NCBI GenBank assembly: GCA_052033935.1
Contig: JBPOJE010000073.1
Location: 2,159-66,158, forward strand
Direction of reading: 5' to 3'
From: Armatimonadota bacterium
GTDB taxonomy: Bacteria > Armatimonadota > UBA5829 > DSUL01
DNA length: 64,000 nt
Numbering within the stretch: the stretch's first letter is position 1; each line of letters begins with the position of its first letter. A program made the translations under genes and the position numbers. The notes under the pieces were generated by a model. The model saw only the letters and a list, made by a program, of their open reading frames with translations. It was not told the DNA's origin and made no database searches. Below, piece after piece: positions 3,686 to 58,970 of the stretch.

Positions 3686-3929
3686 TGCGGCAGCTTCTCA
3701 AGTGCTGTTCGTTTTGTGAATAATCTATATTGTGCTTGGAATTCTAAGTAGAAAATGGTATGATAACACGCTCTCAACCCGGAAAGCGGCTTTTCAGCGG
3801 CAATGCCGGCGCCGCACTCACGGGCGGCAGGATATTCCTATGACAACAGCCGTAGTTCTCTCGAACGGTAGGAGGCGTGTCGCCAGGGCTTGCGTCCCCA
3901 GACCGTCATCTGAAAGGTGCACGATCGCT

Positions 3930-7751: not shown

Positions 7752-7922
7752 GGTTTTCGGAGAACTCAAAGTCTGCTATGCAGGGGCGCTCCGCCTACGG
7801 GAGGGGCGCCCGCATGGTATCATGAACCTGTCAGCGTGATGCCGGGCAGACGATACCCAGCCACGGCCTGTCGAGGGCCAACGGGTTGTCTGAGCCGGCA
7901 TCGAGTCACAAAGGTTCCTGCT

Positions 7923-10900: not shown

Positions 10901-11000
10901 CGGGTGGGACTACGGACTGGACGGCGCGCGCTCGGCGAACCGGGCCTACTACGCCCCCGTCAACCGCTGGCACGACTGCGGATTCCGCCTGGCCAGGTAG
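7923..11000 (+). CDS. secreted protein with five tandem ~150-aa repeats and a C-terminal FGE-sulfatase (SUMF1/DUF323) fold domain
   Basis: ORF 7836..11000. Probable start ATG 7923 (MSRLPFIATVILALSAAAALAAS signal, AAAGG RBS). The C-terminus reads YLAAYWIGRTEVTRAQYRAFMDSGGY...GCHDMAGNAWEWCQDWY...YRVVRGGGWDY...WHDCGFRLAR, typical of the FGE-sulfatase fold. The canonical catalytic Cys pair of true FGEs is not evident. Confidence 0.75.
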   Translation: MSRLPFIATVILALSAAAALAASQPPVAGTISPASGDLEAGAVYTFTATFEDPDGYADIADCRVLLNTAISGANGIFVFYNAVSNKLYLRNDNNTAWLGGYAPGSAGTIDNSQCAVHCSGSSVSGSGNRLTVNLCILLKGSLSGITLSEWLYAGDRSKLGDGWNQAGSIRVEASPAPPVTGTISPAAGHRFAGVTHTFTATFDDPEGFEDIRDCRILLNTAISGANGIFVYFDIAKNRVYLRSDNNTAWLGGYAPGTPNTIENGRCRVYCAGTSLRGSGTRLTVTLQAYVKPGVAGKILKEWLYAGDKAGAGDGWNQAGALYFVPPAPMNTSVSPSSGRVSAPGWTTITTAQYDPNGFADIRSSYLLINSNFTGLGAVYVWYDAVEDLLYLRNDANTGWLGGFAPGSENIISNGRADLDCAATTVKGSAQTLTVGWRVNIRPPQPEWECGAWMYAADTAGLNSGFEKKGDIVFDQAPTNASLEPASGGALSVGQTSVLSAKYTDPSGAADLRGAYLVLNTTLSSFRGVSLWYDAGADRLWLRNDLNTAWLGGIAPGTSGVIENGYCKIDCAGTAVERSGTDLVVNWKIEPKASLRGKALGSWMYCVDAAGLSDGWDQMTTYTIGSYLNVSLTPSSGEVPALQPLSLTTECLAPNGAAATSTYLLLNTAVNAANGVYLYYDGPGNRLYLRNDTGSAWLGGFAPGSANTIANSLVTVNCAGTTVQSAEGRMRVAWSVEFKASDRQFTAWMYTADTARFTDGWDTMGVLQVVNPDGMVYIPAGPALIGSVGDEPYAESDELPRHEVYLAAYWIGRTEVTRAQYRAFMDSGGYHNPAYWSGEGWTWKMANDRTEPDYWAAQQDWGGSSFTQTEAHPVVGVTYYEAEAYCAWAGGYLPTEAQWEKAARWTGSTANAYPWGDVWDPEKCNNFHDRNLAGGGYQGYQTAAVGSYPAGASPYGCHDMAGNAWEWCQDWYVSYPGSSAPFDFTGAYRVVRGGGWDYGLDGARSANRAYYAPVNRWHDCGFRLAR
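7992..10233 (+). repeat. five in-frame tandem repeats (~440-456 bp each) inside the FGE-domain gene
   Basis: Protein repeats share TISPASG...YTFTATF(E/D)DP(D/E)G(F/Y)(A/E)DI(R/A)DCR(V/I)LLNTAISGANGIFV...LYLRNDNNTAWLGGYAPG...C.G...GSG.RLTV...EWLYAGD..G.GDGWNQAG. Copies 1 and 2 are also highly similar at the nucleotide level. Unit starts are near 7992, 8449, 8894, 9341 and 9796. Confidence 0.8.
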
Positions 11001-12258: not shown

Positions 12259-12518
12259 TCATGCCGTTGCGGCGGCACGAAACTCAGGCGGCAAAGCACG
12301 CGCACACAAGCGGCGCGTTCTCGTAAACTCCACGAGAGGAAACCAGCAAGTCCCGCCGCCGCCCCGTCCCTCCTGTCATTCCAGACCGATCCGGAATCCA
12401 AGCGGTTGTGCGTCCTAGGAACAGGATTCCCTGCAGACCGCAGTACGTTGGCGCAGGCTCCTGCTGGCGTGCTATAGTTCCAACAACCCGGCAACGGGAA
12501 CTGCTGGAGGTCAGAGTT

Positions 12519-14728: not shown

Positions 14729-14729
14729 G

Positions 14730-14918
14730 GAGCGGCTCTACACCAACCCGAAGCAGCCGTTCGGCCAGACCGAGGCCGACTTCGCCATCATCGTCGTTCC
14801 CCCAGCGTTTCATGAAAAGATGGTGGATATGGCTGTCGAACACGGCGGCCATATTCTCTCCGGGAAGCCGATCGCTGATTCGGTGGAGGCCTGCTGCCGC
14901 ATTTGTTGCCGCGGGTGA
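14730..14918 (+). pseudogene. relic fragment of a Gfo/Idh/MocA-family oxidoreductase (internal ~60-aa Rossmann segment only)
   Basis: Translation ERLYTNPKQPFGQTEADFAIIVVPPAFHEKMVDMAVEHGGHILSGKPIADSVEACCRICCRG* matches the conserved D-A-V-x-I-x-T-P...H.......G-K-H-V-L-x-E-K-P-[IML]-A region of Gfo/Idh/MocA enzymes. It has no N-terminal GxGxxG or C-terminal domain, and lies in the serC-FDP intergenic gap. Confidence 0.5.
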
Positions 14919-16278: not shown

Positions 16279-17948
16279 GTGTATTGTTTTCAGTGCTAGG
16301 AGACAGCCAAGAACGAGGGCTGCAGCATCAGGGGAATATGCGGCAAGGCACCGGAGACCGCCGATCTTCAGTATCTGCTTATCTACGTGTGCAAGGGGAT
16401 ATCTGTTTTTGCCAGCAGGCTCGGCCAGTTCGGCCCGGTTGACAAGAAGTACGGGCGCGCGGTCTATCAGGGCCTATTCGTAACCGTCACAAACGTCGCG
16501 TGGGACAATGGCACCATTGTGGAGCACATCCGCGAGGCGCTCGCCGTGCGAGACGCGATCAAGGCGGAGTTTCTGGCGGCCTACAAGGAAAAGAACGGCA
16601 GCGGCTTCGCCGAAGCGCTGCCCGATTGCGCCGCCTGGAGCCCGGCCGATGACGCCGAAATCCTCGCAAAGGCCGGATCCGGCGAAGTGCGCATCACCGC
16701 TCAGGAGAACGAGGACGTCCGGTCGCTGCGCGATCTGCTGACTATCGGCTGCAAGGGGATCGCCGCCTACGCCTGGCACGCCGCCGTGCTGGGACACGAG
16801 AAGGCCGAGATCTACGCCTTCATCATGGAAGCCCTCGATTCGACGACGAAGGACCTCTCGGTTGACGAGATGGTGAGGCTGGTGATGAAGGCCGGCGAGA
16901 TGTCCGTCGCGGCCCTGGCGCTCTTGAACGAGGCGAACACCTCCGCCTACGGCAGCCCCGAGATCACCGAAGTGAACCTCGGAGTTCGGAACAATCCGGG
17001 TATCCTCATCCCCGGGCACGATCTGAAGGACATGGAAGAGCTGCTGAAGCAGACCGAGGGCATGGGCGTGGACGTTTACACGCACGGCGAGATGCTTCCG
17101 GCGAGCTACTACCCGGCGTTCAAGAAGTACGGGCACTTCGTGGGCAACTACGGCGGGTCGTGGTGGCATCAGACACGGGATTTCGAGGCGTTCAACGGGC
17201 CGATTCTGATGACGGCCAACTGCCTGGTTCCGCTCAAGCTCGAGAACACCTATCTCGACCGGCTGTTCACCACCGGCGTGGTCAGCTACCCGGGCGCCAC
17301 CCACGTTCCGGATAGGGCGGATGGCGGCGCGAAGGACTTCTCGAAGCTGATCGAGCGGGCGAAGGACTGCAAGCCGCCCACCGGGCTGGAGACAGGCAAG
17401 CTCGTGGGAGGGTTCGCGCACAATCAGGTGCTGGCCCTCGCGGACAAGGTTGTGGATGCCGTCAAGTCAGGCTCCATCAAGCGCTTCGTTGTGATGGCTG
17501 GCTGCGACGGCAGGAAGAAGGAGCGGCAGTACTTCACGGATGTCGCCGCCGCTCTGCCGAAGGACACCAGATCCTTACGGCCGGCTGCGCGAAGTACCGC
17601 TACAACAAGCTGGAACTCGGCGACATCGGCGGCATTCCGCGCGTGTTGGACGCCGGCCAGTGCAACGACTCGTACTCGCTGGTGGTGATCGCCCTCAAGC
17701 TGAAGGAAGTCTTCGGGCTCGAGGACATCAACGATCTGCCGATCTCATACAACATCGCCTGGTACGAGCAGAATGCCGTGGCCGTTCTACTGGCGCTGCT
17801 CTATTTGGGTGTCAAGGGAATCCGGCTGGGCCCGACCCTGCCCGCGTTCCTTTCGCCGAACGTGGCGAAGGTACTTGTGGGGAAATTCGACATCAAGCCG
17901 ATCGGAATGGTCGGGGACGATGTCGCGGCGATGATGGCCGGGAAGTAG
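16279..17948 (+). pseudogene. hcp: hybrid-cluster protein / hydroxylamine reductase (Hcp), disrupted by an in-frame TAG at codon 7 and a 1-nt deletion frameshift near 17567
   Basis: GTG 16279 (GGGAAAGGG RBS) gives VYCFQC*ETAKNEGCSIRGICGKAPETADLQYLL, the Hcp N-terminal Cys cluster, with TAG at 16297-16299 where Hcp has Glu. The frame continues into track ORF 16387..17688. At ...ALPKDT|RSLR the frame slips, and the C-terminus [36 protein letters not shown]...[16 protein letters not shown] continues in the +2 frame to 17948 (track ORF 17643..17948). Confidence 0.8.
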
Positions 17949-27652: not shown

Positions 27653-28720
27653 TTAGCGCGCGAACCGGAACCCGAACGATTTGGTCCAGTAGTTCTCCGG
27701 GCGGTTGTTGCTGCGGGCCGAGACGCGGGCACAGTAGTCCGTGCCGTTCCAGCCGCAGCCCCGGATGGCGCGATATGTGCCGGTGGCCGGCCCTTGCGGG
27801 TCCTGGGTGGGCGAGACACTGTAGTAGCTGCTGCTGAACCAGTCCAGGCACCATTCGGCGACGTTGCCGGCCATGTCATGGCATCCGTACGGGCTCACTC
27901 CGGAGGGGTAGCACCCCACCGGCGCCGTCTGATAACCCGGGTACAGCGTGTCGTTGGTGTTGTTTGACCTCTGGGCATCATACACACTGCCCCAGGGATA
28001 GATGTTCGGGTAGCTGCCGGTCCAGCGGCCGGCCTTCTCCCACTGCGCTTCCGTGGGCAACCGTCCGCCTGCCCACGCGCAGTATGCCTCGGCCTCGTAG
28101 TAGCTTACGGCAACCACAGGATGAGCGTCAGTCTGTGTAAAGGGCCCCGTGCCCCAGTCCTGCTGCTCGGCCCAGGAATCGGGCTCGGTGCGGTCGCGGC
28201 CTTCCTTCCACGTCCAGCCCGCGCTCGACCAGTACGCGGGATTGCTGTAGCCGCCCGCCTGCATAAAGGCGCGGTAGTCGCCCCGAGTCACTTCGTACTT
28301 GCCGATCCAGTAGCCGGAGAGGGTCACCTGGTGCTGCGGCAGTTCGCTTGTCGCCGAGTATGGCTCGCTGCCATTGTTGCCCATCAGAAAAGCCCCGGCT
28401 GGGACATACACCATCTCAGTCCGGCAGGGACCGGCGTAGAGAGTTGACTTGCAGGGCGCCTGTGATGCCGCCAGAACGCCCTCGGCATAGTCGCCCTCGA
28501 CGATCAGAAAATCGCCCGGCTTGCCGGTGATTCCCGTAACCGTTATCTCCCCCCTGCCGTCCGACAGCACCAGCGGCGACTCAGAGGTCACACACCCGTA
28601 CACGACGACCGGGTTGGGAGGGTTCGGGGCGTACCCCAGATCGGAGATGCGGACGGTGTACGCCGCCCATCCAGGTGCGGACGATGCGAGCAGCACAAGA
28701 GCGCAGAACAGCTTTTTCAT
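27653..28720 (-). CDS. secreted FGE-sulfatase-fold (SUMF1/DUF323) domain protein, paralog of the C-terminus of 7923..11000
   Basis: Probable start MKKLFCALVLLASSAPGWA (28720). YWIGKYEVTRGDYRAFMQAGGYSNPAYWSSAGWTWK...GCHDMAGNVAEWCLDW...FGFRFAR is near-identical in motif order to the 7923 gene C-terminus. Confidence 0.75.
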   Translation of the reverse strand: MKKLFCALVLLASSAPGWAAYTVRISDLGYAPNPPNPVVVYGCVTSESPLVLSDGRGEITVTGITGKPGDFLIVEGDYAEGVLAASQAPCKSTLYAGPCRTEMVYVPAGAFLMGNNGSEPYSATSELPQHQVTLSGYWIGKYEVTRGDYRAFMQAGGYSNPAYWSSAGWTWKEGRDRTEPDSWAEQQDWGTGPFTQTDAHPVVAVSYYEAEAYCAWAGGRLPTEAQWEKAGRWTGSYPNIYPWGSVYDAQRSNNTNDTLYPGYQTAPVGCYPSGVSPYGCHDMAGNVAEWCLDWFSSSYYSVSPTQDPQGPATGTYRAIRGCGWNGTDYCARVSARSNNRPENYWTKSFGFRFAR

Positions 28721-28780
28721 CTGAGTCCTCATGCCTATGGTGCGACAGGAGGGCCGGGCTGTCAAGGCCGAAAGCGCGGT

Positions 28781-41004: not shown

Positions 41005-41208
41005 ATGAAATACATCGAGTGCGACACAACGGACGGAGGCAAGGTGATTCGCTGCCTTGCGGAAACAGATGAGGACCGAGCGTTCCTTCACGCCGAGGCG
41101 ATGGCTGGAAGGATCGAGATCGGTGATGTCTGGGACAGGAAGGACCGCGAGCGGGCGCATCTGAAGGAAGAGGCGGAGGACAGGAAGGCCGCCAAAAAGC
41201 AGCGATAG
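41005..41208 (+). CDS. small hypothetical protein (67 aa, charged C-terminus)
   Basis: This ORF is the only support, and the sequence is of low complexity. A TATAAT box lies at 40882-40887 upstream. Confidence 0.3.
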   Translation: MKYIECDTTDGGKVIRCLAETDEDRAFLHAEAMAGRIEIGDVWDRKDRERAHLKEEAEDRKAAKKQR

Positions 41209-41234: not shown

Positions 41235-41267
41235 AAGCCCCACAGGGAGGCCGGGCGGGGCTTTTTT
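41235..41267 (+). terminator. putative intrinsic terminator
   Basis: AGCCCC...GGGGCT stem (6 bp, long GC-rich loop) is followed by TTTTTT at 41262-41267. Confidence 0.4.
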
Positions 41268-41396
41268 GATGCCTGGGACGGACGGGCACAAGGCCCTATC
41301 CTACGCGGATGCGGGCGTTGCCCGGGTTTAGGGGAACAAGATTCCCGAAATGCCGGTGCCAACCGCGTTACGCTGAACTTGATTCAGGGCCTAGGT

Positions 41397-41470
41397 CCGG
41401 ATGGATTCCGGATCGAGTCCGGCATGACGTTGTGTGGCCGGATGGGTGCCGGATCAAGGCCGGCATAACG
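41397..41470. repeat. REP-like palindromic intergenic repeat cluster (two adjacent related units)
   Basis: tCCGGAtggatTCCGGATCGAGTCCGGCATGACGt then gCCGGATgggtgCCGGATCAAGGCCGGCATAACG. The core CCGGATCGAGTCCGG is a hairpin (CCGGA/TCCGG). Confidence 0.6.
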
Positions 41471-41486
41471 CGAAGTCGGCACCCCG

Positions 41487-42565
41487 CTACGGCGTGTCCA
41501 CAATCCGCCCGTCAACGGCCCAGACGCCGCCGTTGCACTGGGAGAAGGCTGCGATGGTGCGCTCGTCCTTCACGAACAGCGAGTTCCACCAGCCGCCTTC
41601 GTCCTCCGGCACCTCGAACGGGACGGAGCGCCCTTCGAAATTGCGCGCGTTCTCGTCGCCGACGTAAACAACGATCTGCGGTTGCTTGCGCCCCACGCTG
41701 GACTGGAACGAGAGCACCGTCTCGCCGCCTGGCATCTGGCGGATGCACGGCGCCCCGCCCCATTCACTGCCGGGCGGCTTCCGGACCGCCCTCCACCGCC
41801 TCGGGCTTGCTCCGCTTGCCGCAAGCGGCTTCCAGTTGTCCTCCATGTTCGAATGGACGATCACCGGGTGGAACATGACCGAGTAACCGTTGTCCTCGAT
41901 GGCGACGACGATCCCCTTGCCGCCCCGCAGTATCAGGGGCGAGGGCATCCCGTCGTGGTGGTTCGGCCGGAAACTGATCGCCTTCGCACTGCTCCATGTG
42001 CGCCCGTTGTCAAACGACCGCACGAGCGAAATCTCCTGCTCGCTCGTGTTTCGGTAAGGGTTCTCGTTGGCGAAAAAGAGCTGAATCTCCCCGAAGGAAG
42101 CTGGATGGCCGCTGGCTCCCAGCATCCGTTGTCCCACACCGTGTCGGCCTCATACGCCAGCGAGTGCGGCTTCCATGTGCGGCCGCCATCTTCGCTTACG
42201 CTGAGGTGGATTGAGAACCGGTGCACGCCGTCCTTCGGGCGCTCGTTGTACATCAGCAGCGCCCAGCCGTTTGCGAGCTGCAGCAGTTCGGGGTTCGACG
42301 CGGTCCCGGATGGAACGCCGGCCACTTCCGCGAAGCCGTCCCACGTCTTGCCGTCGTCCGCGCTGCGCTTCACGCACACTTTGCCGCGCAGCGCGAAGCT
42401 GGCGAGGATATCGCCTCCTTTGAGCCGGATCATCCGCGGGTATCCGCCCCCGCGTTGGACTTCGACGAGCGTGCTCCTGTCCCAGACGATGGTCTTACCG
42501 GAGAAGGCTGCCTGGGCGGCCACTGTCAGAAGAGCGGCCATGAGCGGAAGCGCAAGGATCTTCAT
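41487..42565 (-). CDS. BNR/Asp-box repeat exo-alpha-sialidase-like glycosyl hydrolase, frameshifted as assembled
   Basis: Start MKILALPLMAALLTVAAQA (signal). Asp-boxes KRSADDGKTW, SVSEDGGRTW, RSFDNGRTW are present. The N-terminal part is in track ORF 41933..42724 and the C-terminal part in 41487..42137. The junction ...AIQLPSG|EIQLFFANE is at a GGGG run near 42095. Confidence 0.65.
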
Positions 42566-42623
42566 GCTAATTGCTTCGGCACAGCGGTGCCGGTCTCCTT
42601 GACAGGACGAGGGGTGAATCTTC

Positions 42624-43585
42624 ATGCTTGGCGCAACGATGAACACCGAGAGGATACACATGCCGCGACTGTGCCTGTTCGCCTTTGCTCTCGTCGTGCT
42701 GGCGGCCGCCGCCCCGGCCTTCACTGAGCCAGCCTACCCGGAGTCGCCGGAGGGCGTGACGCTGATTGCCGATGTGGCTTATCTCGCGCAGGGCCGTGAG
42801 GAGAAGTTGGACATCTACCTGCCTGTGGGGCGCAAGGCCGGCCAGCACTCGCCCGCCATGGTGATGATTCACGGAGGCGGTTGGGCGAGGGGCGACAAGA
42901 CGGGCGCGAGGGAATACGAGACGGGTGCGATTCTGGCGCGGGCGGGCTATGTGGCCGTCAGCATCAACTACCAGATGGCTCCCGGAAGGCGCTGGCCAAC
43001 GAACCTGCTCGATTGCAAGAACGCGGTGCGGTTCCTGCGCGTCAACGCGGAATATTACAGCGTGGACCGGCGCGCATCGGTGTGATGGGCGGTTCGGCGG
43101 GCGGGCATCTGGCGCTGATGACCGCCTACACTACCGGTGCGCCGGGACTCGAACCAGCAAGCCCCTACCCCGGCGTGTCGAGCCGGGTGAGCTGCGTCCT
43201 TGATCTTTACGGCCCCACCAGCCTGCTGACGCGGGAGAAGACCGACGCGAAGGGCAACCTGACGGGGGTCCCTGTGAATACCCTTGGCCTCTTCAGCCCC
43301 ACCCGCCAGCAGGACCCGGGGTTGTGGAGGTTGGCGTCGCCGGTCAGCTACGTGCGGAAGAACTCCCCGCCCACGCTGATTCTGCACGGTCTGGCGGATA
43401 CCACGGTGGACCGCGGTCAGGCCGAAGCGCTTGCGGCGAAGTTGGCGGAGCACGGCGTGGAGCACAGGCTGGTGCTGCTTGAGGGCGTCGGTCACTCGTT
43501 CTACCTGAAGACGTGGAAGAACAAGCCGCTGCCTTTGGACGTCGAGGGCATTGCTCTGGAGTTCTTGGCAAGGCATCTGAAGTGA
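42624..43585 (+). CDS. secreted alpha/beta-hydrolase fold-3 esterase/lipase (HGGG + GxSxG), frameshifted as assembled
   Basis: MPRLCLFAFALVVLAAAAPAFT is the signal. MIHGGGWARGDK is the oxyanion HGGG motif. After ...NAEYYSVD the frame shifts (CC run near 43068) into IGVMGGSAGGHLA (nucleophile) ...LILHGLADTTV (track ORFs 42624..43085 and 42881..43585). Confidence 0.65.
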
Positions 43586-45414
43586 GACGCGTGGGGGCGG
43601 GGATTGCGGCGATTGTCATCGCGCCGCTGGTGTGTGTCTGGGTCTTTCGCACCGAGATTCTGCGCAACTCCACCGACCTTGCATCGAGCGCGCTGACGTT
43701 CGCGGGAGTGGGTGTGCTGCTGGCGCTCGCGGCTTTGCGGGCGGTGGCTGGCCGACCCGGGACGCGGGCGATCATCCTCATCTACTCGGCTGTCGCCTGC
43801 ACGGCGGGCATCGCGACGATGGGCATGGTGCAGTTCCTCATCACGACGCTGCTTGCGCCGTTCTACTTCGCCACCCCCGAAAACCGCTGGGCGGAGTTCT
43901 GGGCGTCCATTCCGGCGTGGGCGGCGCCGAGATCGCCGAAGGTGGTGGAGGGGTTCTTTCTGGGCGGGTCGAGCCTGTACGACCCGGCGATCTGGAAGAC
44001 GTGGCTTGTGCCTGTCGCGGCGTGGAGCCTCTTTCTGGCGGCTCTCCTGGGAGCGCAGTACTGCATCGCGCTTCTGATGTACGAGCGCTGGGCGAAAGAA
44101 GAGAAGCTTGCCTTCCCGATAGTTCAGCTTCCGCTGGCGCTTACATCCGAGCGGCACTCCCGGGTGCCGCTGATTGCCGGGGCGGCCCTCGCCATCGCCG
44201 TGCAGACTCTGAACGCGGCGCACTATATAGCGCCGTCGGTGCCGCGGATCAACGTGCTGCCGAGAGAGTTCGGCTCGCTTCTTCCGCCGCCCTGGAACGG
44301 CGTCGGGCAGCTCTGGGTCACGAACTACCCTTGCATCATCGGGTTGTCGGCGCTGATCCCGACGAACATCCTGTTCTCGTGCGTCATCTTCTTTTGGCTC
44401 GGCAAGGCGGAGGGAGTGTACGGCCGGGCGTTCGGACTGACGGCGGTGGGCGGCGCGACGGGGTTTCCGTACGCGACTGAACAGGCGCAGGGGGCGCTTC
44501 TGGCGCTCTCGCTCGCTGTTGTCTGGTCGGCGAGGAGGTCGCTGGCGCGTTCGCTCCGGAACCCGGCGGACCGCGCTGTGTGGCTTACGCTCGCGGCCTG
44601 CTGCGCGGCGCTCTGGTGGTTCGCGGTGGCGCTGGGTCTGCGCCCCGTTTTCGCGGCGGCGTTCTTTGGGCTGTTCTTGCTCTTCATGACGGCCATCGGC
44701 TGGCTGCGCGCGGCGATCGGCCCGGCGTGGCCTCCGGGAGTTGACGTCTCGTGGTGGCTGCGGGGTCTGGGCGCTGGCGTGCCGCTCGGCGAAGGGGTGG
44801 GCCTGGCATACCTGCGCTGGTTCTCGTTCGGCGACTCCCGGGCGCACGCGCTGCCGAACTACGTGGACGCGATGCGGCTGACCGAGACTTCGGGCATTTC
44901 GCGCAGGACGCTGACGTTCGTCCTGGGTGCGGCGTCTGTGCTCGCTATCGCGGCAAGCCTGTGGGCGGCGCTTGACGTGTATTACACGAGTGGCGCGGCC
45001 ACGGCGCTGACGCACAACTGGCGGACGTATCAGGGGCGCGTCGCGTTTGAGGTTCTACGCTCGCATCAGGATGGCCTCACGGTGCGGCCCGGGACAGCGC
45101 AGTTCGGTGCGGCGGGGTTCGGGTTCGGTCTGGTGCTGGCTCTGCAGTGGTTGGGGACGCGCATCACCGGCTGGCCGCTGCACCCGGCGGGGTTCGCGCT
45201 GGCGCAGAGCGGCGCGCTGGAGTGGCTCTGGTGCCCAATGCTGATTGCGGGGGCGGCGAAGGTTCTGCTGTTGCGCGGCGGGCTGAAGACGTACCGGCGG
45301 TCGGTGCCGTTCTTTATCGGGCTGGTCCTCGGCGACTACGCGTTGGGGATCATCCTTGCTCTTCTGAGCTCGGCGCTCGGCGTGAGCCTCTACAAGACGT
45401 TTCCGATTGAGTGA
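43582..45414 (+). CDS. uncharacterised polytopic membrane protein (~610 aa, >12 predicted TM segments)
   Basis: GTG 43582 overlaps the upstream TGA (GTGA). The sequence is highly hydrophobic with repeated helical segments and has no recognised family motif. Confidence 0.55.
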   Translation: MRRVGAGIAAIVIAPLVCVWVFRTEILRNSTDLASSALTFAGVGVLLALAALRAVAGRPGTRAIILIYSAVACTAGIATMGMVQFLITTLLAPFYFATPENRWAEFWASIPAWAAPRSPKVVEGFFLGGSSLYDPAIWKTWLVPVAAWSLFLAALLGAQYCIALLMYERWAKEEKLAFPIVQLPLALTSERHSRVPLIAGAALAIAVQTLNAAHYIAPSVPRINVLPREFGSLLPPPWNGVGQLWVTNYPCIIGLSALIPTNILFSCVIFFWLGKAEGVYGRAFGLTAVGGATGFPYATEQAQGALLALSLAVVWSARRSLARSLRNPADRAVWLTLAACCAALWWFAVALGLRPVFAAAFFGLFLLFMTAIGWLRAAIGPAWPPGVDVSWWLRGLGAGVPLGEGVGLAYLRWFSFGDSRAHALPNYVDAMRLTETSGISRRTLTFVLGAASVLAIAASLWAALDVYYTSGAATALTHNWRTYQGRVAFEVLRSHQDGLTVRPGTAQFGAAGFGFGLVLALQWLGTRITGWPLHPAGFALAQSGALEWLWCPMLIAGAAKVLLLRGGLKTYRRSVPFFIGLVLGDYALGIILALLSSALGVSLYKTFPIE

Positions 45415-45437
45415 GAGCGGGGGCATTGTGCCGTCGC

Positions 45438-45460
45438 TCTCTGGATGCCGGATCGAGTCC
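45438..45460. repeat. REP-like palindromic repeat, second locus
   Basis: CCGGATCGAGTCCGGCATGACGT is identical over 23 nt to 41408-41430. It sits 24 nt after the stop of the membrane-protein gene. Confidence 0.6.
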
Positions 45461-45569
45461 GGCATGACGTGGGGGCGGAGGCGGAGGTTATTCGGCCCGG
45501 CGTGCTGAAGAATGCTCCGGGAGCCAGGTGACAGCACCCGGGCAGATCTAGAAATGGCGGAATAGGCAA

Positions 45570-53070: not shown

Positions 53071-53137
53071 AGCTCGGCAATCGGGCGTTGGACTTCCCCC
53101 GAAAAAGTGGACACCCTAAGGATGAGTTATCGAAAGG

Positions 53138-53407
53138 GTGTCTGAGAGGATGATGAAGTTCAGCGAGGAGTTCCGGGACGAGTCGGTGCGGCTGGTTCTG
53201 GAGAGCGAGAGGACGGTGGCGGAGGTAGCGCGGGATACTGGAATCAGCGTGTGGACCTTGCGGGGTCGGATCCAGAAGAGGTGCGAGGCCGTCAGGTCGT
53301 CTTTGTCCCAGAGGCGTGAGACCCTTGAGCAGGAGATTCGGTGCCTTCGCCGGGAAGTGTTAGTTCTGCGTCAGGAGCGTGAGATCCTAAAAAAAGCGGC
53401 GGCGTAA
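53138..53407 (+). CDS. IS3 family transposase OrfA (HTH + leucine zipper)
   Basis: MSERMMKFSEEFRDESVRLVLESERTVAEVARDTGISVWTLRGRIQK...LRREVLVLRQEREILKKAAA ends in the A-run frameshift site. Confidence 0.8.
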   Translation: MSERMMKFSEEFRDESVRLVLESERTVAEVARDTGISVWTLRGRIQKRCEAVRSSLSQRRETLEQEIRCLRREVLVLRQEREILKKAAA

Positions 53408-54287
53408 TTCGCGAAGGAGCAGCTGTGAGGTATGCCTTTGTTGCTGTACACAGGAAGGAGTTCCCCCTGAGTCTTCTGTGCCGGGTTCTTGGGGTATCCA
53501 GGAGCGGCTACTTTGCGTGGCGCGGCCGTCCTGAGAGCCGCCGGGAGCGTGAGAACCGGATTCTTCTTGAGCGGATCAAGGCGACCCATAGGTCGGGAAG
53601 GAAGATGTATGGTAGCCCTCGGATTCACCGGAAGCTCGTGTCGGAGGGGGTGCTGTGCGGCCGTGTCCGGGTGGAGCGCTTGATGCGCGTGAATGGGATC
53701 CGTGCGCAACGGAAGCGGCGGTTCGTGGTGACGACGGACTCGGGGCACGGCCTGCCGGTTTCTGAGAACATTCTTGGCCGTGAGTTCGCGGTGGGCGAGC
53801 CGAACCGTGTATGGGCATCGGACATCACTTATGTTCCGACGGATGAGGGCCGGCTGTATCTGGCGGGCGTTCTGGACCTGGGGATGAAGGGAGTAGTATG
53901 GGCGAGAGTCTGGACAGGACACTGGCGATGGATGCCTTGACGATGGCGTATCATCGTCGTAGGCCGGGCGAGGGACTGCTCCATCATTCGGATCGGGGTA
54001 GTCAGTATGCGAACCGGGACTACTAGGCTCTGCTGAGCGCGTATGGGATGCGCTCAAGTATGAGCCGGAAGGGGGACTGCTGGGACAATGCACCGATGGA
54101 GAGCTTCTTCGCGACACTGAAGAAAGAGCTGATCCACGGGCGAAGGTTCCGAACCCGGGAACAGGCCCGGCGAGAGATCTTCGAATACATCGAGGTGTTC
54201 TACAACCGGGAGCGGCTGCACTCCAGCTTGGGGTATGTCTCGCCCGCGGACTACGAACGGCAGCTTGCCGTCAAAGAGGCGGCTTAG
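53389..54287 (+). pseudogene. IS3 family transposase OrfB (DDE integrase core), disrupted by a frameshift (~53905) and an in-frame TAG (54024-54026)
   Basis: The -1 frame from the A7G site gives ...RVWASDITYVPTDEGRLYLAGVLDLGMKGVV. After a shift it continues ...[68 protein letters not shown]...[19 protein letters not shown] (track ORFs 53425..53940 and 54048..54287). Confidence 0.75.
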
Positions 54288-54341
54288 GGTGTCCACGAAA
54301 ACATGGGAGGTCCAATTGTGGTCCGAGAGGAGACCTTCAGG

Positions 54342-55256
54342 ATGAAATGTCTATCAGTCCGCGTGGTGCTTGTTCTTGTGTGGTTGCTTTCGGCTTGCTC
54401 CATAGCCTCAGCAGCCACGGTTCCTGATTGGTTGGTGAGGCCGGGAACCATCGGGCACGCTCTGTCCCTTAGCCACGCTCTGTCCCTTAGCGATGGATCC
54501 CAAGTATGCCTTCATGTGGTGGTCGTGGACAAGATCCACTTCAGGCAGAAGCCGGTCTATTTCACAGTCCGCGAATGCTTCGACTGGAAGTCGTGCCTGA
54601 TCGTTTACGGACAACCTTCGCCCCTGCTACGGCACGGGCAGACAATAGACATCGAGGGAACCCTGACAACGCTCCCGAACGGGCATAGGGCGATTGTAAG
54701 GCCGAAAGTATCAGGTTATGTGGACAAAGCGGGTAAGCTCCTCTACCACGGACCGCTCATAAAGTGGCCTTGGTCTCGGACGGAATGGGAGTGGAAGACC
54801 GACCTCACCGTTGTGGAAGCAGTTGACCAGGCTTCCTATACGCTTTCGGATACCGGGACTCCTCCTGATGAGCCGATTACTAACTCCACTTCCGGCCCGG
54901 TCTTCTGTGCGACAATCGCCGATGCGCGAGCACAGTATAGCCCAACCGAGCGGGTGCTTGTGGAGCTTCAGTGCAGGCCGCTTGAGAATCCGGTTTCAGG
55001 CTCTTTCACGTTGAAAGAGGACGGTGGCGCGGATAGCATTACCATCTACTACACGGGTTCCGTAGCGGCTTCCGACAGGATTAACAAGCTCGTCGGTGCC
55101 ATACAGAGAGACGCTGGAACCAACTATTGGATTGAGGTGGACTCCGGCCCAACTGGCAATCGCAAGATCCTATTGGAAGCGTACATACCGCTACAAGCGG
55201 AACCATCGCATGGGCAAAGACATTTGCGGACACCACTACATTGCCTGCGCCACTGA
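54342..55256 (+). CDS. hypothetical secreted protein (lower-GC island)
   Basis: Signal MKCLSVRVVLVLVWLLSACSIASA. It contains an 18-bp perfect tandem duplication (HALSLSHALSLS). It is possibly the N-terminal part of one larger gene continuing in 55241..57121. Confidence 0.5.
   Translation: MKCLSVRVVLVLVWLLSACSIASAATVPDWLVRPGTIGHALSLSHALSLSDGSQVCLHVVVVDKIHFRQKPVYFTVRECFDWKSCLIVYGQPSPLLRHGQTIDIEGTLTTLPNGHRAIVRPKVSGYVDKAGKLLYHGPLIKWPWSRTEWEWKTDLTVVEAVDQASYTLSDTGTPPDEPITNSTSGPVFCATIADARAQYSPTERVLVELQCRPLENPVSGSFTLKEDGGADSITIYYTGSVAASDRINKLVGAIQRDAGTNYWIEVDSGPTGNRKILLEAYIPLQAEPSHGQRHLRTPLHCLRH
54456..54491 (+). repeat. perfect 18-bp tandem duplication (2 copies) inside coding sequence
   Basis: CACGCTCTGTCCCTTAGC at 54456-54473 is repeated exactly at 54474-54491. 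Confidence 0.9.
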
Positions 55257-57121
55257 GCGGAAAAGTAGTATCGCGCACGTTCCCTTGGCTCGGTTACTTC
55301 TACATTCTGGGGATGGCATCGTTCGTGGCCACGGGTGACACTGTCGATGTGGAAGGGGAGTTGGCGACAGACGATGGGGAGCGCGTAGTCGACGCCTCGT
55401 CCACTACGCTTGTTGATATTGCGTCCGTCGCGTCGGTGGGCTTGAATGGCCGTTCGTTGGCAGGTGGGAATTTCAATGTGTTCACCCCCGGAGCCCACGG
55501 TGCGTATGGCCTGAACAATGTTGGTTTGCTTGTTGGTGTTTGGGGCAGAGTGACCGCTGTCGGCTCCGACTATTTCTACCTTGATGACGGCTCTAATTGC
55601 GACGATGGTTCCGGGTCTGGCGGGGTGAGAGTTGTCAACGTGTCTGGTTATATGCCAGGTGCCGATGACTACGTTGCCGTAACAGGCGTCTCAGGTCTTG
55701 CCACGTATGACACTGATCTTGCCAGAACTGTCCGGTTAGCCCGCACCGTCGATCTTTCCGGTATCTGCCCGACTCTTCCGCCGGCTAACTTGACCGTTGC
55801 TCCAACGGGCAGCGGGAAGCTCACTCTATACTGGAGCGGTGTGTGCGGAGCGACAGGCTATAACGTCTATCGAGGCACGATTTCCGGTGGTGAAAACTAC
55901 TATACGCCTGTCAATGGTGGAACTCCGGTAACCACAGAGAGCTACTCCGGTAGTGGTGTCTATACCTATACGGATACCGCGCTGACCGACGGAGTCGAGT
56001 ATTTCTACACGGTAAAGGCTGTGGGTGGGTGTGGCGAGAGTCAAGCGTCGGAAGAGGACAGCTGCATTCCTGATCCAAACGGTGCGCCGTGGGATACTGG
56101 TGATGTTGCAGCAATCTTGGCCTCCATCAGGAATTCGTTCCCCGGGGTTTCAATACCATACGGCTGCATCCGGGCACGAGGGCCGGACGGAAGAGATTAT
56201 CTGGACGGGATTAGCAGTCCAATCATACCTGACGTCACAATCGATCCCACGACGAGAGATGTAGTCTTTTCCGACGGAACCAGAATTGCAGCACCGAATG
56301 ATATTGCCGACATTGACTCATACACGCTTGGGTCAATGCAGATCCTTACAACGATCGAACCGAGAATAAAGAACGCCCAATCCGGGCCATTCAGAAAGGT
56401 CTACACTCACCATAACTATCGTGGAGTAAAAGGTCGTTTCCGGCTTCCTGACTCGAGTGTCGGCATCAGAGTCACGCCTTACACGTACCCTTCCACCGGA
56501 AAGAGCACCAAGGACATACCCTATGTGTATCTTGGCGGGCTTGGCAATCGCTACACCGCCGTTGATGCGGGGCTGTACTGGGGGCCAACGGCTAACGACC
56601 CGCAAAGCCGTTGGAGAATGTTTGGCAAGATCAAGAACTCCAAGAGAGACGAGTGGATTAACACGCCTCCAAATGGGATCTTTGACGATAATCAAGATGT
56701 CAACGCTGAGTACATAGCCTCAAGCATAGTTAATGGCCGGGTGCTGCTGAGAATAACACCAGTTGGCGGAGGTCAGACTGGGGTTATCACGATAGACATA
56801 TCGGATTTCGCAAAGACGGGGCAAGGTGTCCACCTGAAGCGTGTCCATTCGATTGCCCAAAACAATCTCATTGGAACAGACAAGGCCAAGGGATACCGAG
56901 AAACGGGGTCATATTTCCAGTCCAGTGCCTGGTTTGATGGCCAGGTAATGGATCAGAATGGAACATACAGCAACTGGGGCACCTCGCAAACACCCTACTC
57001 GACATATCATGGCAGGTTTCCTAACCTCTCCAGCATCGTCAGTTTCCAACTGCAGTTTCCACAGAACCTCTATCCGTCGAAATGTTTCTCAGGTGATCTC
57101 TATGTGCACATCACCCTGTGA
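55241..57121 (+). CDS. secreted fibronectin-type-III domain protein with recurrent FYLDDGS...GVRV module (lower-GC island)
   Basis: ANLTVAPTGSGKLTLYWSGVCGATGYNVYRGTISGG...YTDTALTDGVEYFYTVKAV is an FN3 domain. GLNNVGLLVGVWGRVTAVGSDYFYLDDGSNCDDGSGSGGVRV is the shared module. The track start TTG 55241 has no signal peptide. The frame is open from 55136 and overlaps the upstream ORF end, so a frameshift fusion is possible. Confidence 0.5.
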   Translation: MPAPLSGKVVSRTFPWLGYFYILGMASFVATGDTVDVEGELATDDGERVVDASSTTLVDIASVASVGLNGRSLAGGNFNVFTPGAHGAYGLNNVGLLVGVWGRVTAVGSDYFYLDDGSNCDDGSGSGGVRVVNVSGYMPGADDYVAVTGVSGLATYDTDLARTVRLARTVDLSGICPTLPPANLTVAPTGSGKLTLYWSGVCGATGYNVYRGTISGGENYYTPVNGGTPVTTESYSGSGVYTYTDTALTDGVEYFYTVKAVGGCGESQASEEDSCIPDPNGAPWDTGDVAAILASIRNSFPGVSIPYGCIRARGPDGRDYLDGISSPIIPDVTIDPTTRDVVFSDGTRIAAPNDIADIDSYTLGSMQILTTIEPRIKNAQSGPFRKVYTHHNYRGVKGRFRLPDSSVGIRVTPYTYPSTGKSTKDIPYVYLGGLGNRYTAVDAGLYWGPTANDPQSRWRMFGKIKNSKRDEWINTPPNGIFDDNQDVNAEYIASSIVNGRVLLRITPVGGGQTGVITIDISDFAKTGQGVHLKRVHSIAQNNLIGTDKAKGYRETGSYFQSSAWFDGQVMDQNGTYSNWGTSQTPYSTYHGRFPNLSSIVSFQLQFPQNLYPSKCFSGDLYVHITL

Positions 57122-57137
57122 TAGGATTGCTGCATCC

Positions 57138-58262
57138 ATGATACTGCTTTCTGCTCTTGCTGCTGCCAGCGTTGCGCACGCCCTGGATTTCCCATCATCC
57201 GCCGTCGTATACTCGACGGCGGCGACGGCCAGAAAACCTTCGCGACTCATAGTCTGCACATACCCGGGGGGGGTGTCAACAGAGGTCAAGATGAAGCAGG
57301 CTGAAGGAGCGCGAATGGGAGATGACATCCGAGCCCCCGTGTTCTCTCCCAACGGCAAAACCGTGTTAGTCACTGCAAACCGCACAAGCGCAGATAGGAA
57401 AACAACCGTGAGCCCCGATTCTACACCGGGTCTTGACCTATGGACCGTTGATTTACAGAGATCGACGGCTGCGCCGCTGACTCACGATGCTTGCGGATAC
57501 GAAAACTACTCCTGGTCGCCAGACGGGAATTACATCTGCTCGATCTCTTGCAACGGCGTTCAGGACGAGCACCCGATGGCTGACACTGGCACAACCGCAT
57601 TCCTCTACCTGTGGAACGCGCACAAACCAGTTAAGAAGCTGATCGGCCTCGAGGCTGTCGATTATGGATGGTCAAGTGACAGCAGGAGAGTATATCACAC
57701 TGGTAGCGCATATAGCGTCAAATTGCCTCATGACAGGAGAGCAAGCTTTATATACGCGGATATCCAACAGGGCAGATCTTTCCTCTACTTCAGTTCAGAT
57801 AATGACTTGTATTCGGGCACATGGTCTTCCAACGGCAAGCTGTTGGCCTACTGCGAGTCTAGCGAGACGGGCTATGGCATCAGCATTCTGCGCAAGGGAG
57901 AGAAGAATCCACGTCGATTCCTGAACACCGAGTTGCCTTTGCATCCGTGGTGGTCGCCTGACGGCAGGAAAGTTGCCTTCTTGGAGAGTGTTCCACATCA
58001 AGAAGGAGGCGAATACCTCAACAAGCTGCGAATCCTGGACGTAGTATCAGGAAAGACTACGGACCTGTGGTCGGTACGCGGCGAAGCAACCATTCTCGGG
58101 TGGACGAGGGACAGCCAATGGGTCGTGGCCAGTCGCTTCCAGTCCCTTGCACCGGACTGGCTAGGGGAAGTTGTTGCATGCTGTATCGGCAGACCGGAAT
58201 TGACTGTGACGTTGTGCTCGCCTGTGGAGAGAGTCACTGCCTTTGACTGGATCCAGCGATAG
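57138..58262 (+). CDS. TolB-like WD40/PD40 beta-propeller repeat protein, secreted (lower-GC island)
   Basis: Signal MILLSALAAASVAHA. PD40 repeats are FSPNGKTV, WSPDGNYI, WSSDSRRVY, WSSNGKLLAY, WSPDGRKVAF. An alternative start is ATG 57102. Confidence 0.65.
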   Translation: MILLSALAAASVAHALDFPSSAVVYSTAATARKPSRLIVCTYPGGVSTEVKMKQAEGARMGDDIRAPVFSPNGKTVLVTANRTSADRKTTVSPDSTPGLDLWTVDLQRSTAAPLTHDACGYENYSWSPDGNYICSISCNGVQDEHPMADTGTTAFLYLWNAHKPVKKLIGLEAVDYGWSSDSRRVYHTGSAYSVKLPHDRRASFIYADIQQGRSFLYFSSDNDLYSGTWSSNGKLLAYCESSETGYGISILRKGEKNPRRFLNTELPLHPWWSPDGRKVAFLESVPHQEGGEYLNKLRILDVVSGKTTDLWSVRGEATILGWTRDSQWVVASRFQSLAPDWLGEVVACCIGRPELTVTLCSPVERVTAFDWIQR

Positions 58263-58602: not shown

Positions 58603-58970
58603 GGGGGCGATAGGTCTCGACAGGGAGCTTTGAAGCGCGGTCTGCGAGTCGAGGCGCCGCTGGCCTCGTAAAAAGCGGCAAAAAACATAAACGCGAACAC
58701 TAACAACTATAGCTACGCGCTCGCTGCCTAACTAAAGGGCAGCCGTCCGGCCCTCCTTAGCTGGAGAGGAGGTCACCGGGCGTTGATAAATCCGGCTTGC
58801 TCCGCCTAGGCGTCCACTGGGGGCGGAGGACTCAAAAAGAGGACTGGCTAGAAGGCGCGAGCCCCGCCCGCGGGGATTGCTTTCGGCGAGATAACAAACG
58901 CGGGAAACACTCGTAGAGGGCCGTGCGTTCGGTTTTCTGGACCCGGGTTCGAATCCCGGCGCCTCCACCA
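58603..58970 (+). ncRNA. ssrA: tmRNA (transfer-messenger RNA)
   Basis: 5' GGGGGCG pairs with the 3' CGCCUCC-ACCA acceptor stem. The T-arm GGGTTCGAATCCCGG precedes the CCA end. The internal reading frame GCGAACACTAACAACTATAGCTACGCGCTCGCTGCCTAA encodes the tag peptide ANTNNYSYALAA*. Confidence 0.9.

Follow-up and report, generated by a model that had tools for sequence, protein, structure and literature searches.

Here, we report that the short palindromic repeats in a 64,000-nt stretch of DNA from an Armatimonadota bacterium (GCA_052033935.1, contig JBPOJE010000073.1; hereafter the window) are, by their sequence, units of the CGTC-tagged superfamily of repetitive extragenic palindromic (REP) elements. 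Units of this kind are widely distributed over bacterial phyla and differ in copy number between close relatives. In many lineages, a gene for a small protein with a GIY-YIG nuclease domain is non-randomly nested between them, and at least once this gene is present or absent together with its units as one block. We consider it moderately probable that the window units are non-autonomous CGTC REPs that are copied or maintained in trans, with the small GIY-YIG nuclease as the most likely driver.

Repeat units in the window

The initial annotation of this DNA had described a 23-nt sequence, CCGGATCGAGTCCGGCATGACGT, in two identical copies. Exactly two copies are present in the window, at 41408-41430 and 45448-45470, the second of which had been placed 10 nt too low (45438-45460), so that the annotated end cut through the repeat, and none of 100 dinucleotide shuffles gave a match to the 23-mer at three mismatches or fewer. 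The length of 23 nt was too short. A repeat search of the window returned a 29-nt family at 41402-41430, 41443-41471 (79%) and 45442-45470 (97%), and the complete unit is 28 nt long. On the forward strand it reads TGG, one arm of an 8-bp stem (ATGCCGGA), a 5-nt loop, the other arm (TCCGGCAT) and GACG; on the opposite strand this is a CGTC tag, the 8-bp stem enclosing the 5-nt loop, and a CCA tail. A covariance model (R1) was built from 72 units of other genomes, with the window's own variants excluded, and was run against the window with filters off. It recovered five units at three intergenic loci, while the next-ranked matches were at chance level. The five units, read on the forward strand, are as follows.

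41366-41393, minus strand: locus 1, degenerate inverted unit of the partner type; CGTT / ACGCTGAA / CTTGA / TTCAGGGC / CTA; 18.0 bits, E 0.002.
41402-41429, plus strand: locus 1, unit with one stem mismatch; TGG / ATTCCGGA / TCGAG / TCCGGCAT / GACG; 37.2 bits, E 8e-10.
41443-41470, plus strand: locus 1, degenerate unit; TGG / GTGCCGGA / TCAAG / GCCGGCAT / AACG; 28.9 bits, E 5e-7.
45442-45469, plus strand: locus 2, single unit and the highest-scoring one in the window; TGG / ATGCCGGA / TCGAG / TCCGGCAT / GACG; 45.3 bits, E 1.5e-12.
12374-12400, minus strand: locus 3, unit with a 4-nt loop; TGTC / ATTCCAGA / CCGA / TCCGGAAT / CCA; 28.3 bits, E 8e-7.

Two further degenerate tandem copies had been proposed at locus 1, one of which is the unit at 41443-41470; the other, CCGGATGGATT, is spacer and tail preceding the unit at 41402-41429. 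The inverted unit at 41366-41393 and the whole of locus 3, both on the minus strand, had been overlooked. Unit 41443-41470 begins 41 nt past the start of unit 41402-41429, with which it forms a direct pair, and makes up a head-to-head heterodimer (tags outside) with unit 41366-41393; unit 41402-41429 is nested in the spacer of this outer inverted pair. The window holds one trimer and two singletons. Units 45442 and 41402 carry the tag CGTC, units 41443 and 41366 carry CGTT, and unit 12374 carries TGTC. The arms ATGCCGGA and TCCGGCAT pair over all eight positions in unit 45442, and 6-7 of 8 positions pair in the remaining four units. Three units begin the stem with an AT pair, the other two with G-T or A-C. 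The loops are TCGAG (two units) and TCAAG (two units), both of 5 nt, and the 4-nt TCGG (one unit). The tail is CCA (TGG on the forward strand) in four units and CTA in unit 41366.

Membership in the CGTC-tagged REP superfamily

CGTC-tagged REPs were described by Di Nocera, De Gregorio & Rocco (2013, BMC Genomics 14:522; PMC3733652). They are defined by an unpaired CGTC tag (TGTC or CCTC allowed), an 8-9 bp stem beginning with AT, a loop of 4-5 nt and a CCA tail. They occur mostly as head-to-head dimers with the tags outside (heterodimers for CGTC-2 and CGTC-3), and they are intergenic and preferentially located downstream of open reading frames (ORFs), that is, between convergent or unidirectional genes. 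The superfamily takes in Neisseria dRS3 and Rickettsia RPE-4 and RPE-6. These elements "apparently lack a dedicated transposase", and no gene for a REP-associated tyrosine transposase (RAYT) was found flanked by CGTC units (PMC3733652).

We assign the window repeats to this superfamily because their tag, stem, loop and tail agree with the published text and because a model derived from other genomes recovers all five of them. Like the published elements, they combine a CGTC, TGTC or CGTT tag, an 8-bp stem starting with AT, a 4-5 nt loop and a CCA tail, form a head-to-head heterodimer, and lie in intergenic DNA near gene ends. With five units at three loci in 64 kb and additional units in relatives, they may also be multi-copy and dispersed in the genome. 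No RAYT gene was found with them in the window, whose sole transposase, an IS3 remnant, lies 8 kb away. The view that the repeats are a REP-like palindromic intergenic family, already taken in the initial annotation, is thereby borne out. They differ from the published elements in their host and in the GIY-YIG gene that we find consistently nested between units, where the paper reports no dedicated enzyme. Armatimonadota is a new host phylum for CGTC REPs, since it is not among the five listed (Proteobacteria, Chlorobi, Bacteroidetes, Spirochaetes and Thermotogae; PMC3733652). As to sub-family, the 8-bp stem and 5-nt loop fit the text definition of CGTC-2, whereas the supplement places a near-identical Sphingopyxis unit in CGTC-1: the Sphingopyxis alaskensis peptide WTPDQVRGD, given there under CGTC-1, back-translates to the second commonest unit in our sample. 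A spurious 189-aa (amino acid) ORF at 41309-41878 (plus strand) crosses the REP cluster of locus 1 (...GWIPDRVRHDVVWPDGCRIKAGIT...), and its translation includes WIPDRVRHD.

Distribution across genomes and metagenomes

The repeat had been suggested to be specific to this genome, which does not hold. In a scan of one genome per species, the 22-mer CCGGATCRAGKCCGGCATRACG occurred in at least 120 genome stretches of many phyla, against a chance expectation, by our estimate, of about 0.5 in 1.2e12 strand-bases for a random 22-mer of such degeneracy. Its hosts among the matches listed include Sphingomonadales, Rhizobiaceae, Parvibaculum, beta-, gamma- and zetaproteobacteria and many Desulfobacterota, as well as Nitrospirae, Binatia, Bipolaricaulota, Lutibacter and Balneolaceae. 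The hexamer CTGGAT upstream of the 22-mer is conserved across loci as well, and at most loci an inverted partner (CGTCAT, stem-loop, ATCCAG) lies 13-40 nt away. This partner unit, CGTCATCCTGAACTYGATTCAGGRCCCA, was present in at least 120 metagenome stretches, usually head-to-head with a [A/G]TGCCGGA unit over a 13-nt spacer, and the intact partner type CGTCATCCTGAACTTGATTCAGGACCCA is abundant in metagenomes and in the close relative L133.

Pairs in other genomes are oriented head-to-head in 41 cases, tail-to-tail in 4 and head-to-tail in 2; at metagenome loci the corresponding numbers are 92, 37 and 60, with a modal spacer of 13 nt between unlike partners. Across phyla, the unpaired CGTC tag and the CCA tail are as conserved as the stem, and the same repeat sequence stands beside unrelated genes in different phyla. 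Units avoid coding sequence, 25% of 130 units lying within long ORFs compared with 77% of random positions.

Copy number in close relatives

The number of units at a given orthologous site changes between close relatives and may be 0, 1 or 14. In L133, whose DUF6785 protein is 89% identical at the aa level to that of the window, both orthologous loci contain REPs. The BNR gene is followed by four units, two of which form the same 41-nt direct pair, and the DUF6785 gene by an array of head-to-head heterodimers (6.3 x 87 bp) with 14 units, compared with one in the window. The orthologous flanks align on either side of this array, and its "spacers" repeat at 93% identity. The L133 unit at 3804-3831, which is the ortholog of 41402-41429, carries a compensatory A-T to G-C change in the stem. 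The alignment of another relative (L146/L178; 85% nucleotide identity) with the window has its limits exactly at 41402 and 45471, and a degenerate unit orthologous to locus 3 is present in L126-L129. A 78% relative (L136) has no unit within 13.6 kb; its intergenic DNA is too diverged from the window and its downstream gene differs, so that it provides no clean REP-only empty site. In independent Logan assemblies of the same strain, breaks fall exactly at the unit, with a start at 45442 or an end at 45470, which is what a unit repeated in those samples would produce.

GIY-YIG nuclease genes nested between CGTC units

About 1.75 Mb of REP-bearing loci (the REP-anchored sample) were screened for ORFs flanked by units on both sides. 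One flanked family recurred in unrelated loci, a protein of about 95 aa with a GIY-YIG domain (PF01541, E 1e-12 to 4e-19). Each of the 14 GIY-YIG ORFs of this sample belongs to a REP cluster, the units lying 7-130 nt away from either end. When units and genes were defined strictly, 9 of 15 GIY-YIG gene models were flanked on both sides, as opposed to 16 of 1464 other crude genes (odds ratio 136, p 1e-13). The other ORF clusters among the REP-flanked ORFs were discarded as artefact peptides from the repeats or antisense frames of the GIY-YIG gene.

As these loci had been chosen for their REPs, a second test started from the protein and was unbiased with respect to REPs. A tblastn search of PLSDB gave 33 records, from which 12 plasmid loci were taken with 4 kb on each side and searched for units at E <= 0.05. 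Units flanked the gene on both sides in 7 of the 12 (L261, L262, L263, L265, L266 and L267, plus the weak but symmetrical L264). By eye, 9-bp-stem dimers of the CGTC-3 type were recognised on both sides of the GIY-YIG gene at the S. meliloti locus, and TGTCAT...ATGACA palindromes of other types at the Planktothrix and Spirosoma loci. Altogether, nesting was found in alpha-, beta- and gammaproteobacteria, Armatimonadota, one cyanobacterium and one Bacteroidota plasmid.

The closest named homologues of the GIY-YIG version that accompanies the window's REP types are from Armatimonadota metagenome-assembled genomes (MAGs). In L271, one of these MAGs, the ATG is preceded at 10 nt by one unit, the final eight codons and the TGA are part of another, and 12.3 kb contain no further unit; a second (L273) has the same layout within a cluster. 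In Azospirillum lipoferum 4B, a 509-bp block comprising a head-to-head dimer, the gene and a second head-to-head dimer lies between sufB and sufC. The block is missing from A. ramasamyi, A. sp. B510 and A. brasilense, where the flanks are 91-97% identical. These empty sites contain no REP unit, which indicates that the gene and its four units arrived together. The proteins group by REP type across proteobacterial classes: those of Azospirillum (alpha), Neisseria (beta), and Aeromonas and Photobacterium (gamma) cluster, and all are accompanied by CCCGC-type REPs with 4-nt loops. Short head-to-head heterodimers without a gene have the same unit composition as the gene-bearing element.

PADLOC and NCBIfam gave no informative family for the small GIY-YIG protein, for which there is no NCBIfam model, while profile searches returned weak matches to homing endonucleases. 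A literature search yielded no paper naming GIY-YIG together with REP, REPIN (inverted REP pairs forming a long hairpin) or RAYT.

Two side observations concern this gene family. The sufB-sufC spacer holds a small nuclease-type gene in three lineages, namely a GIY-YIG gene in Azospirillum (L263) and Shinella sp. PSBB067 (H24/H49) and a gene for a DUF559 protein in Sphingomonas parapaucimobilis (H55), and it may be a site at which selfish nuclease genes land repeatedly. Contigs with close GIY-YIG homologues are mostly 0.5-3 kb long, and the start of Logan contig L272 falls within the flanking REP, 32 nt upstream of the gene. Both fit a gene that sits in assembly-breaking repeats, and the family is therefore probably under-represented in MAGs.

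Gene context and folding of the units

Every window unit is intergenic and lies 16-46 nt from the end or start of some gene. Locus 1 is situated between convergent genes, a 67-aa ORF and a BNR-like ORF on the minus strand, and unit 41443-41470 ends 16 nt from the stop codon of the latter (41487-41489, minus strand). Unit 45442 at locus 2 begins 27 nt past the TGA (45412-45414) of a DUF6785/DUF6784 membrane-protein gene (43582-45414), and the locus precedes an ADP-ribosylglycohydrolase gene by 100 nt. The placement of both loci directly downstream of stop codons, as first annotated, is thus correct. Locus 3 immediately precedes the isocitrate dehydrogenase gene; in relatives its unit follows an MFS transporter gene by 35 nt, a gene that is deleted in the window. 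By gene-pair class, one locus is convergent, one unidirectional and one was unidirectional before the gene deletion.

The RNA-folding check that had been suggested gave a mixed outcome. Unit 45442 folds well on its own (-14.2 kcal/mol, z -3.4 versus shuffles), as do the composite regions 45405-45480 (-38 kcal/mol, z -3.7) and 41360-41480 (-60.2 kcal/mol, z -4.5), the latter forming one long hairpin in which 41366-41393 pairs with 41443-41470 and the middle unit is nested. Taken singly, units 41402 and 41366 did not surpass shuffles in folding (z -0.1 and +0.5). A further structure adjoins the unit of locus 2.

45413-45441, plus strand: separate hairpin, GAGAGCG...CGCTCTC with an inner GGCA/TGCC stem, immediately before REP unit 45442.

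This hairpin begins within the stop codon and, according to the alignment, is kept in L133 with one G-U change. A stem-loop adjoining the unit is also present at Rhizobiaceae loci, and the layout has been described for CGTC-3 spacers of A. tumefaciens (PMC3733652).

A transcript-stabilising role, as first proposed, is conceivable. The proposed terminator-like role found no support. No unit is followed by a T-run (downstream sequences GTGGGGGC, TTGTGTGG and CGAAGTCG), and a terminator and promoter scan reported nothing at the REP positions of the window; the missing T-run and the silent terminator scan both speak against intrinsic (Rho-independent) terminators. An Rfam scan of the window gave no family at the repeats, tmRNA alone reaching its gathering score. 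The 67-aa ORF (41005-41208) is followed at 41235-41266 (plus strand) by a GC-rich hairpin with a TTTTTT run after it (GCCCCACAGGGAGGCCGGGCGGGGCTTTTTT), which resembles a canonical intrinsic terminator but is absent from the consensus-scan listing; this genome thus does use T-run terminators, unlike the REP units.

Proposed mechanism and alternative explanations

In the mechanism that we propose, a GIY-YIG gene of about 95 aa between two units would form a REP-gene-REP block of 0.3-0.5 kb that is gained or lost as a whole. Its nuclease would recognise the hairpin together with the tag and then mobilise or copy the units. The short head-to-head REP pairs would represent substrates of this block or derivatives that lack the gene, just as miniature inverted-repeat transposable elements (MITEs) relate to insertion sequence (IS) elements and REPINs to RAYT genes, and singleton units such as those of the window would likewise be derivatives or substrates of the nuclease element. 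Once settled, units are probably transcribed as hairpins in 3' untranslated regions (UTRs), any effect on mRNA stability being secondary. More tentatively, and with somewhat less confidence than in the role of the nuclease, we suggest that the window repeats could be gene-less members of an undescribed prokaryotic mobile element whose autonomous form is REP / GIY-YIG / REP, 0.3-0.5 kb in length.

A different view would see the units as RNA elements selected by the host, which block 3'-5' exonucleases or attenuate read-through as 3'-UTR hairpins, the classical function of REPs, and are spread by ordinary recombination with no dedicated enzyme. The intergenic position of the window units so close to gene ends or starts would suit such a role, as would the stable folding of unit 45442 and of the composite loci (but not that of units 41402 or 41366 alone), the published preference for positions downstream of ORFs (PMC3733652), and the persistence of orthologous units, one of them with a compensatory stem change, between species at 89% aa identity. 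However, the units do not keep one orientation to the upstream transcript (locus 2 versus locus 3), a single site carries from 0 to 14 copies among relatives, no T-run follows the units, our sample gave no preference for any gene-pair class, and the conservation of the CGTC tag and CCA tail at the level of the stem across phyla would be needless for a mere RNA hairpin. We regard this explanation as rather unlikely. Far less probable is the mobilisation of the units as REPINs by a RAYT of the IS200/IS605 family, as is the case for GTAG REPs. The inverted-pair architecture and the folding into a long hairpin are REPIN-like, yet the tag is CGTC instead of GTAG, Pfam scans detected no Y1/HUH transposase among the window genes, and neither a RAYT-like seed sequence, which is weak evidence, nor an HUH...Y..NP motif search found a RAYT in the approximately 1.75 Mb of REP-bearing loci. 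The absence of RAYT genes flanked by CGTC units in PMC3733652 points the same way. Chance palindromes, a transcription-factor operator or a CRISPR-like array have a negligible probability. The 8-bp half-site palindrome could bind a dimeric regulator, and the 87-bp array of L133 superficially resembles repeats and spacers, but such readings are effectively refuted by the lack of any match in shuffles, the cross-phylum copies beside unrelated genes and the structure of the L133 array with its 93% identical "spacers", and Rfam has no matching family.

The GIY-YIG gene might alternatively be a free-standing homing endonuclease that lands in pre-existing REPs, which would then be its targets and spread by another route. 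This would produce the same positional association as the proposed nuclease-driven element, and it would agree with the insertion between the conserved operon genes sufB and sufC in two orders and with the weak homing-endonuclease profile matches. It sits poorly with the REP-free empty sites of Azospirillum, where the gene and its four units came together, with the Armatimonadota MAG L271, which in 12.3 kb has no units other than the two beside the gene, and with the gene-less head-to-head heterodimers that share the unit composition of the gene-bearing element; we judge it improbable, to about the same degree as the RNA role.

Several results weigh against a nuclease-driven element as the source of the window units. 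The association of GIY-YIG genes with REPs would be equally expected if the gene only homed into existing REPs. One protein-anchored locus (L269) has units on one side of the gene only, and another (L260) shows no clear units around it, either by the model or by eye. The orientation of the units around the gene is not uniform, as the gene lies inside one head-to-head pair or between two pairs. The only solved relative of this putative nuclease is the uncharacterised UPF0213 protein 1ZG2. Neither the window nor about 100 kb from its closest relatives contains a GIY-YIG gene. Our sample of units gave no bias for convergent, unidirectional or divergent gene pairs (p 0.93, with a crude gene caller), unlike the sample of PMC3733652; the published preference was not reproduced here, which does not amount to a refutation. 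Finally, the seed stems of R1 were selected for pairing; covariation statistics on this seed would be circular, and covariation in it is hence not independent evidence.

Comparison with known systems

The REPIN/RAYT systems (Bertels & Rainey 2011; Nunvar et al. 2010) resemble the CGTC elements in the inverted REP pair with a short spacer that forms a long hairpin, in the single small nuclease gene flanked by the same REPs, and in the mixture of singletons, doublets and clusters. Their tag is GTAG, whereas the window tags are CGTC, CGTT and TGTC, and their enzyme is an HUH/Y1 transposase and not a GIY-YIG nuclease. REPIN families are lineage-specific and have been described as mostly vertically inherited, in contrast to the CGTC unit, which is near-identical across phyla. 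The array of L133 (87-bp period, 6.3 copies) is reminiscent of the bacterial interspersed mosaic elements (BIMEs) of Enterobacteria, which are tandem arrays of alternating inverted units with conserved linkers, but BIMEs have another unit sequence and tag, and the window itself holds no more than one trimer and two singletons.

Free-standing GIY-YIG homing endonuclease genes are known, for instance, as the seg genes of phage T4. They share with the genes studied here the nature of a small selfish nuclease gene between conserved genes whose presence varies among close relatives (sufB/sufC). The present protein differs in its length of about 95 aa and in consisting of a bare catalytic domain with no separate DNA-binding domain, and its gene differs in being bounded by inverted REPs that are also found in many gene-less copies. 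A MITE-like nature, as suggested in the initial annotation, is partly supported: like MITEs, the repeats are short, non-coding, multi-copy, have terminal inverted repeats and are likely derivatives of a coding element, inverted head-to-head pairs dominate, and copy number varies between close relatives. They depart from MITEs in that single units occur and the putative parent nuclease is not of a known transposase class. No target-site duplication was recognisable at the empty sites compared, which were too diverged to fix the exact ends.

Other features of the window

The window has a G+C content of 62.9%, and its isocitrate dehydrogenase has its closest named homologues in MAGs of Armatimonadota and Chthonomonadales. 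One RNA gene was identified.

58603-58970: tmRNA, one-piece, with the tag ANTNNYSYALAA.

Three genes are split by frameshifts and intact in relatives: a BNR/sialidase-like gene (41487-42724, minus strand; 379 aa in relatives), a BD-FAE esterase gene (42624-43585, plus strand; 320 aa) and a gene for a hybrid-cluster (Prismane) protein (16387-17948, plus strand; 556 aa). Logan assemblies obtained independently for the strain show the BNR and esterase splits again, which hence look like real pseudogenes, not assembly errors. Compared with L128 (GCA_040769165.1), the window has lost the body of the MFS transporter gene at 12365-12445 (about 1.5 kb, with about 35 nt left at each end) and a cupin and GFO/IDH/MocA gene pair at 14729-14908. 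Together, the gene losses and pseudogenes suggest ongoing gene loss in this lineage.

The IS3-family remnant (53088-54315) has 33-nt imperfect inverted repeats, an HTH_Tnp_1 orfA and an orfB broken into HTH_21 and rve pieces; a homologous IS end lies about 1.2 kb from a REP unit on metagenome contig L213. In three ORFs between this remnant and the tmRNA gene (54303-58262; 317, 626 and 434 aa), third-position G+C is not elevated as it is in the rest of the window, and this may be acquired DNA; the 434-aa ORF has PD40 repeats. A 1054-aa protein with a C-terminal FGE-sulfatase domain is encoded at 7836-11000 (plus strand) and contains five repeats of about 450 nt (8053-10081). The region for its C-terminal part is homologous, with 71-80% nucleotide identity, to a second and inversely oriented FGE-sulfatase gene at a distance of 17 kb (27653-28765, minus strand).

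Implications for the CGTC REP superfamily

Within the window, the repeats are ordinary members of a catalogued REP superfamily, to which they add Armatimonadota as a host phylum and an orthologous site with 0, 1 or 14 units. Units of this family also have practical consequences, as they break short-read assemblies and yield recurrent artefact peptides that are liable to be mis-annotated as hypothetical proteins. The wider value of the analysis lies in a lead on the driver of these elements, given that the 2013 paper left CGTC REPs without a transposase and that our literature search found no later paper resolving the matter. If the proposed element is real, the orphan CGTC REP superfamily, including Neisseria dRS3 and Rickettsia RPE-4 and RPE-6, would gain a dedicated enzyme, and the joint travel of the nuclease and its recognition hairpins would explain why a near-identical 28-mer occurs from Armatimonadota to Proteobacteria, Desulfobacterota and Bacteroidota. 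Should the nesting hold up, a new nuclease class would join the enzymes that drive bacterial repeat families. The nesting of GIY-YIG genes between units makes the question of the CGTC REP enzyme directly testable.

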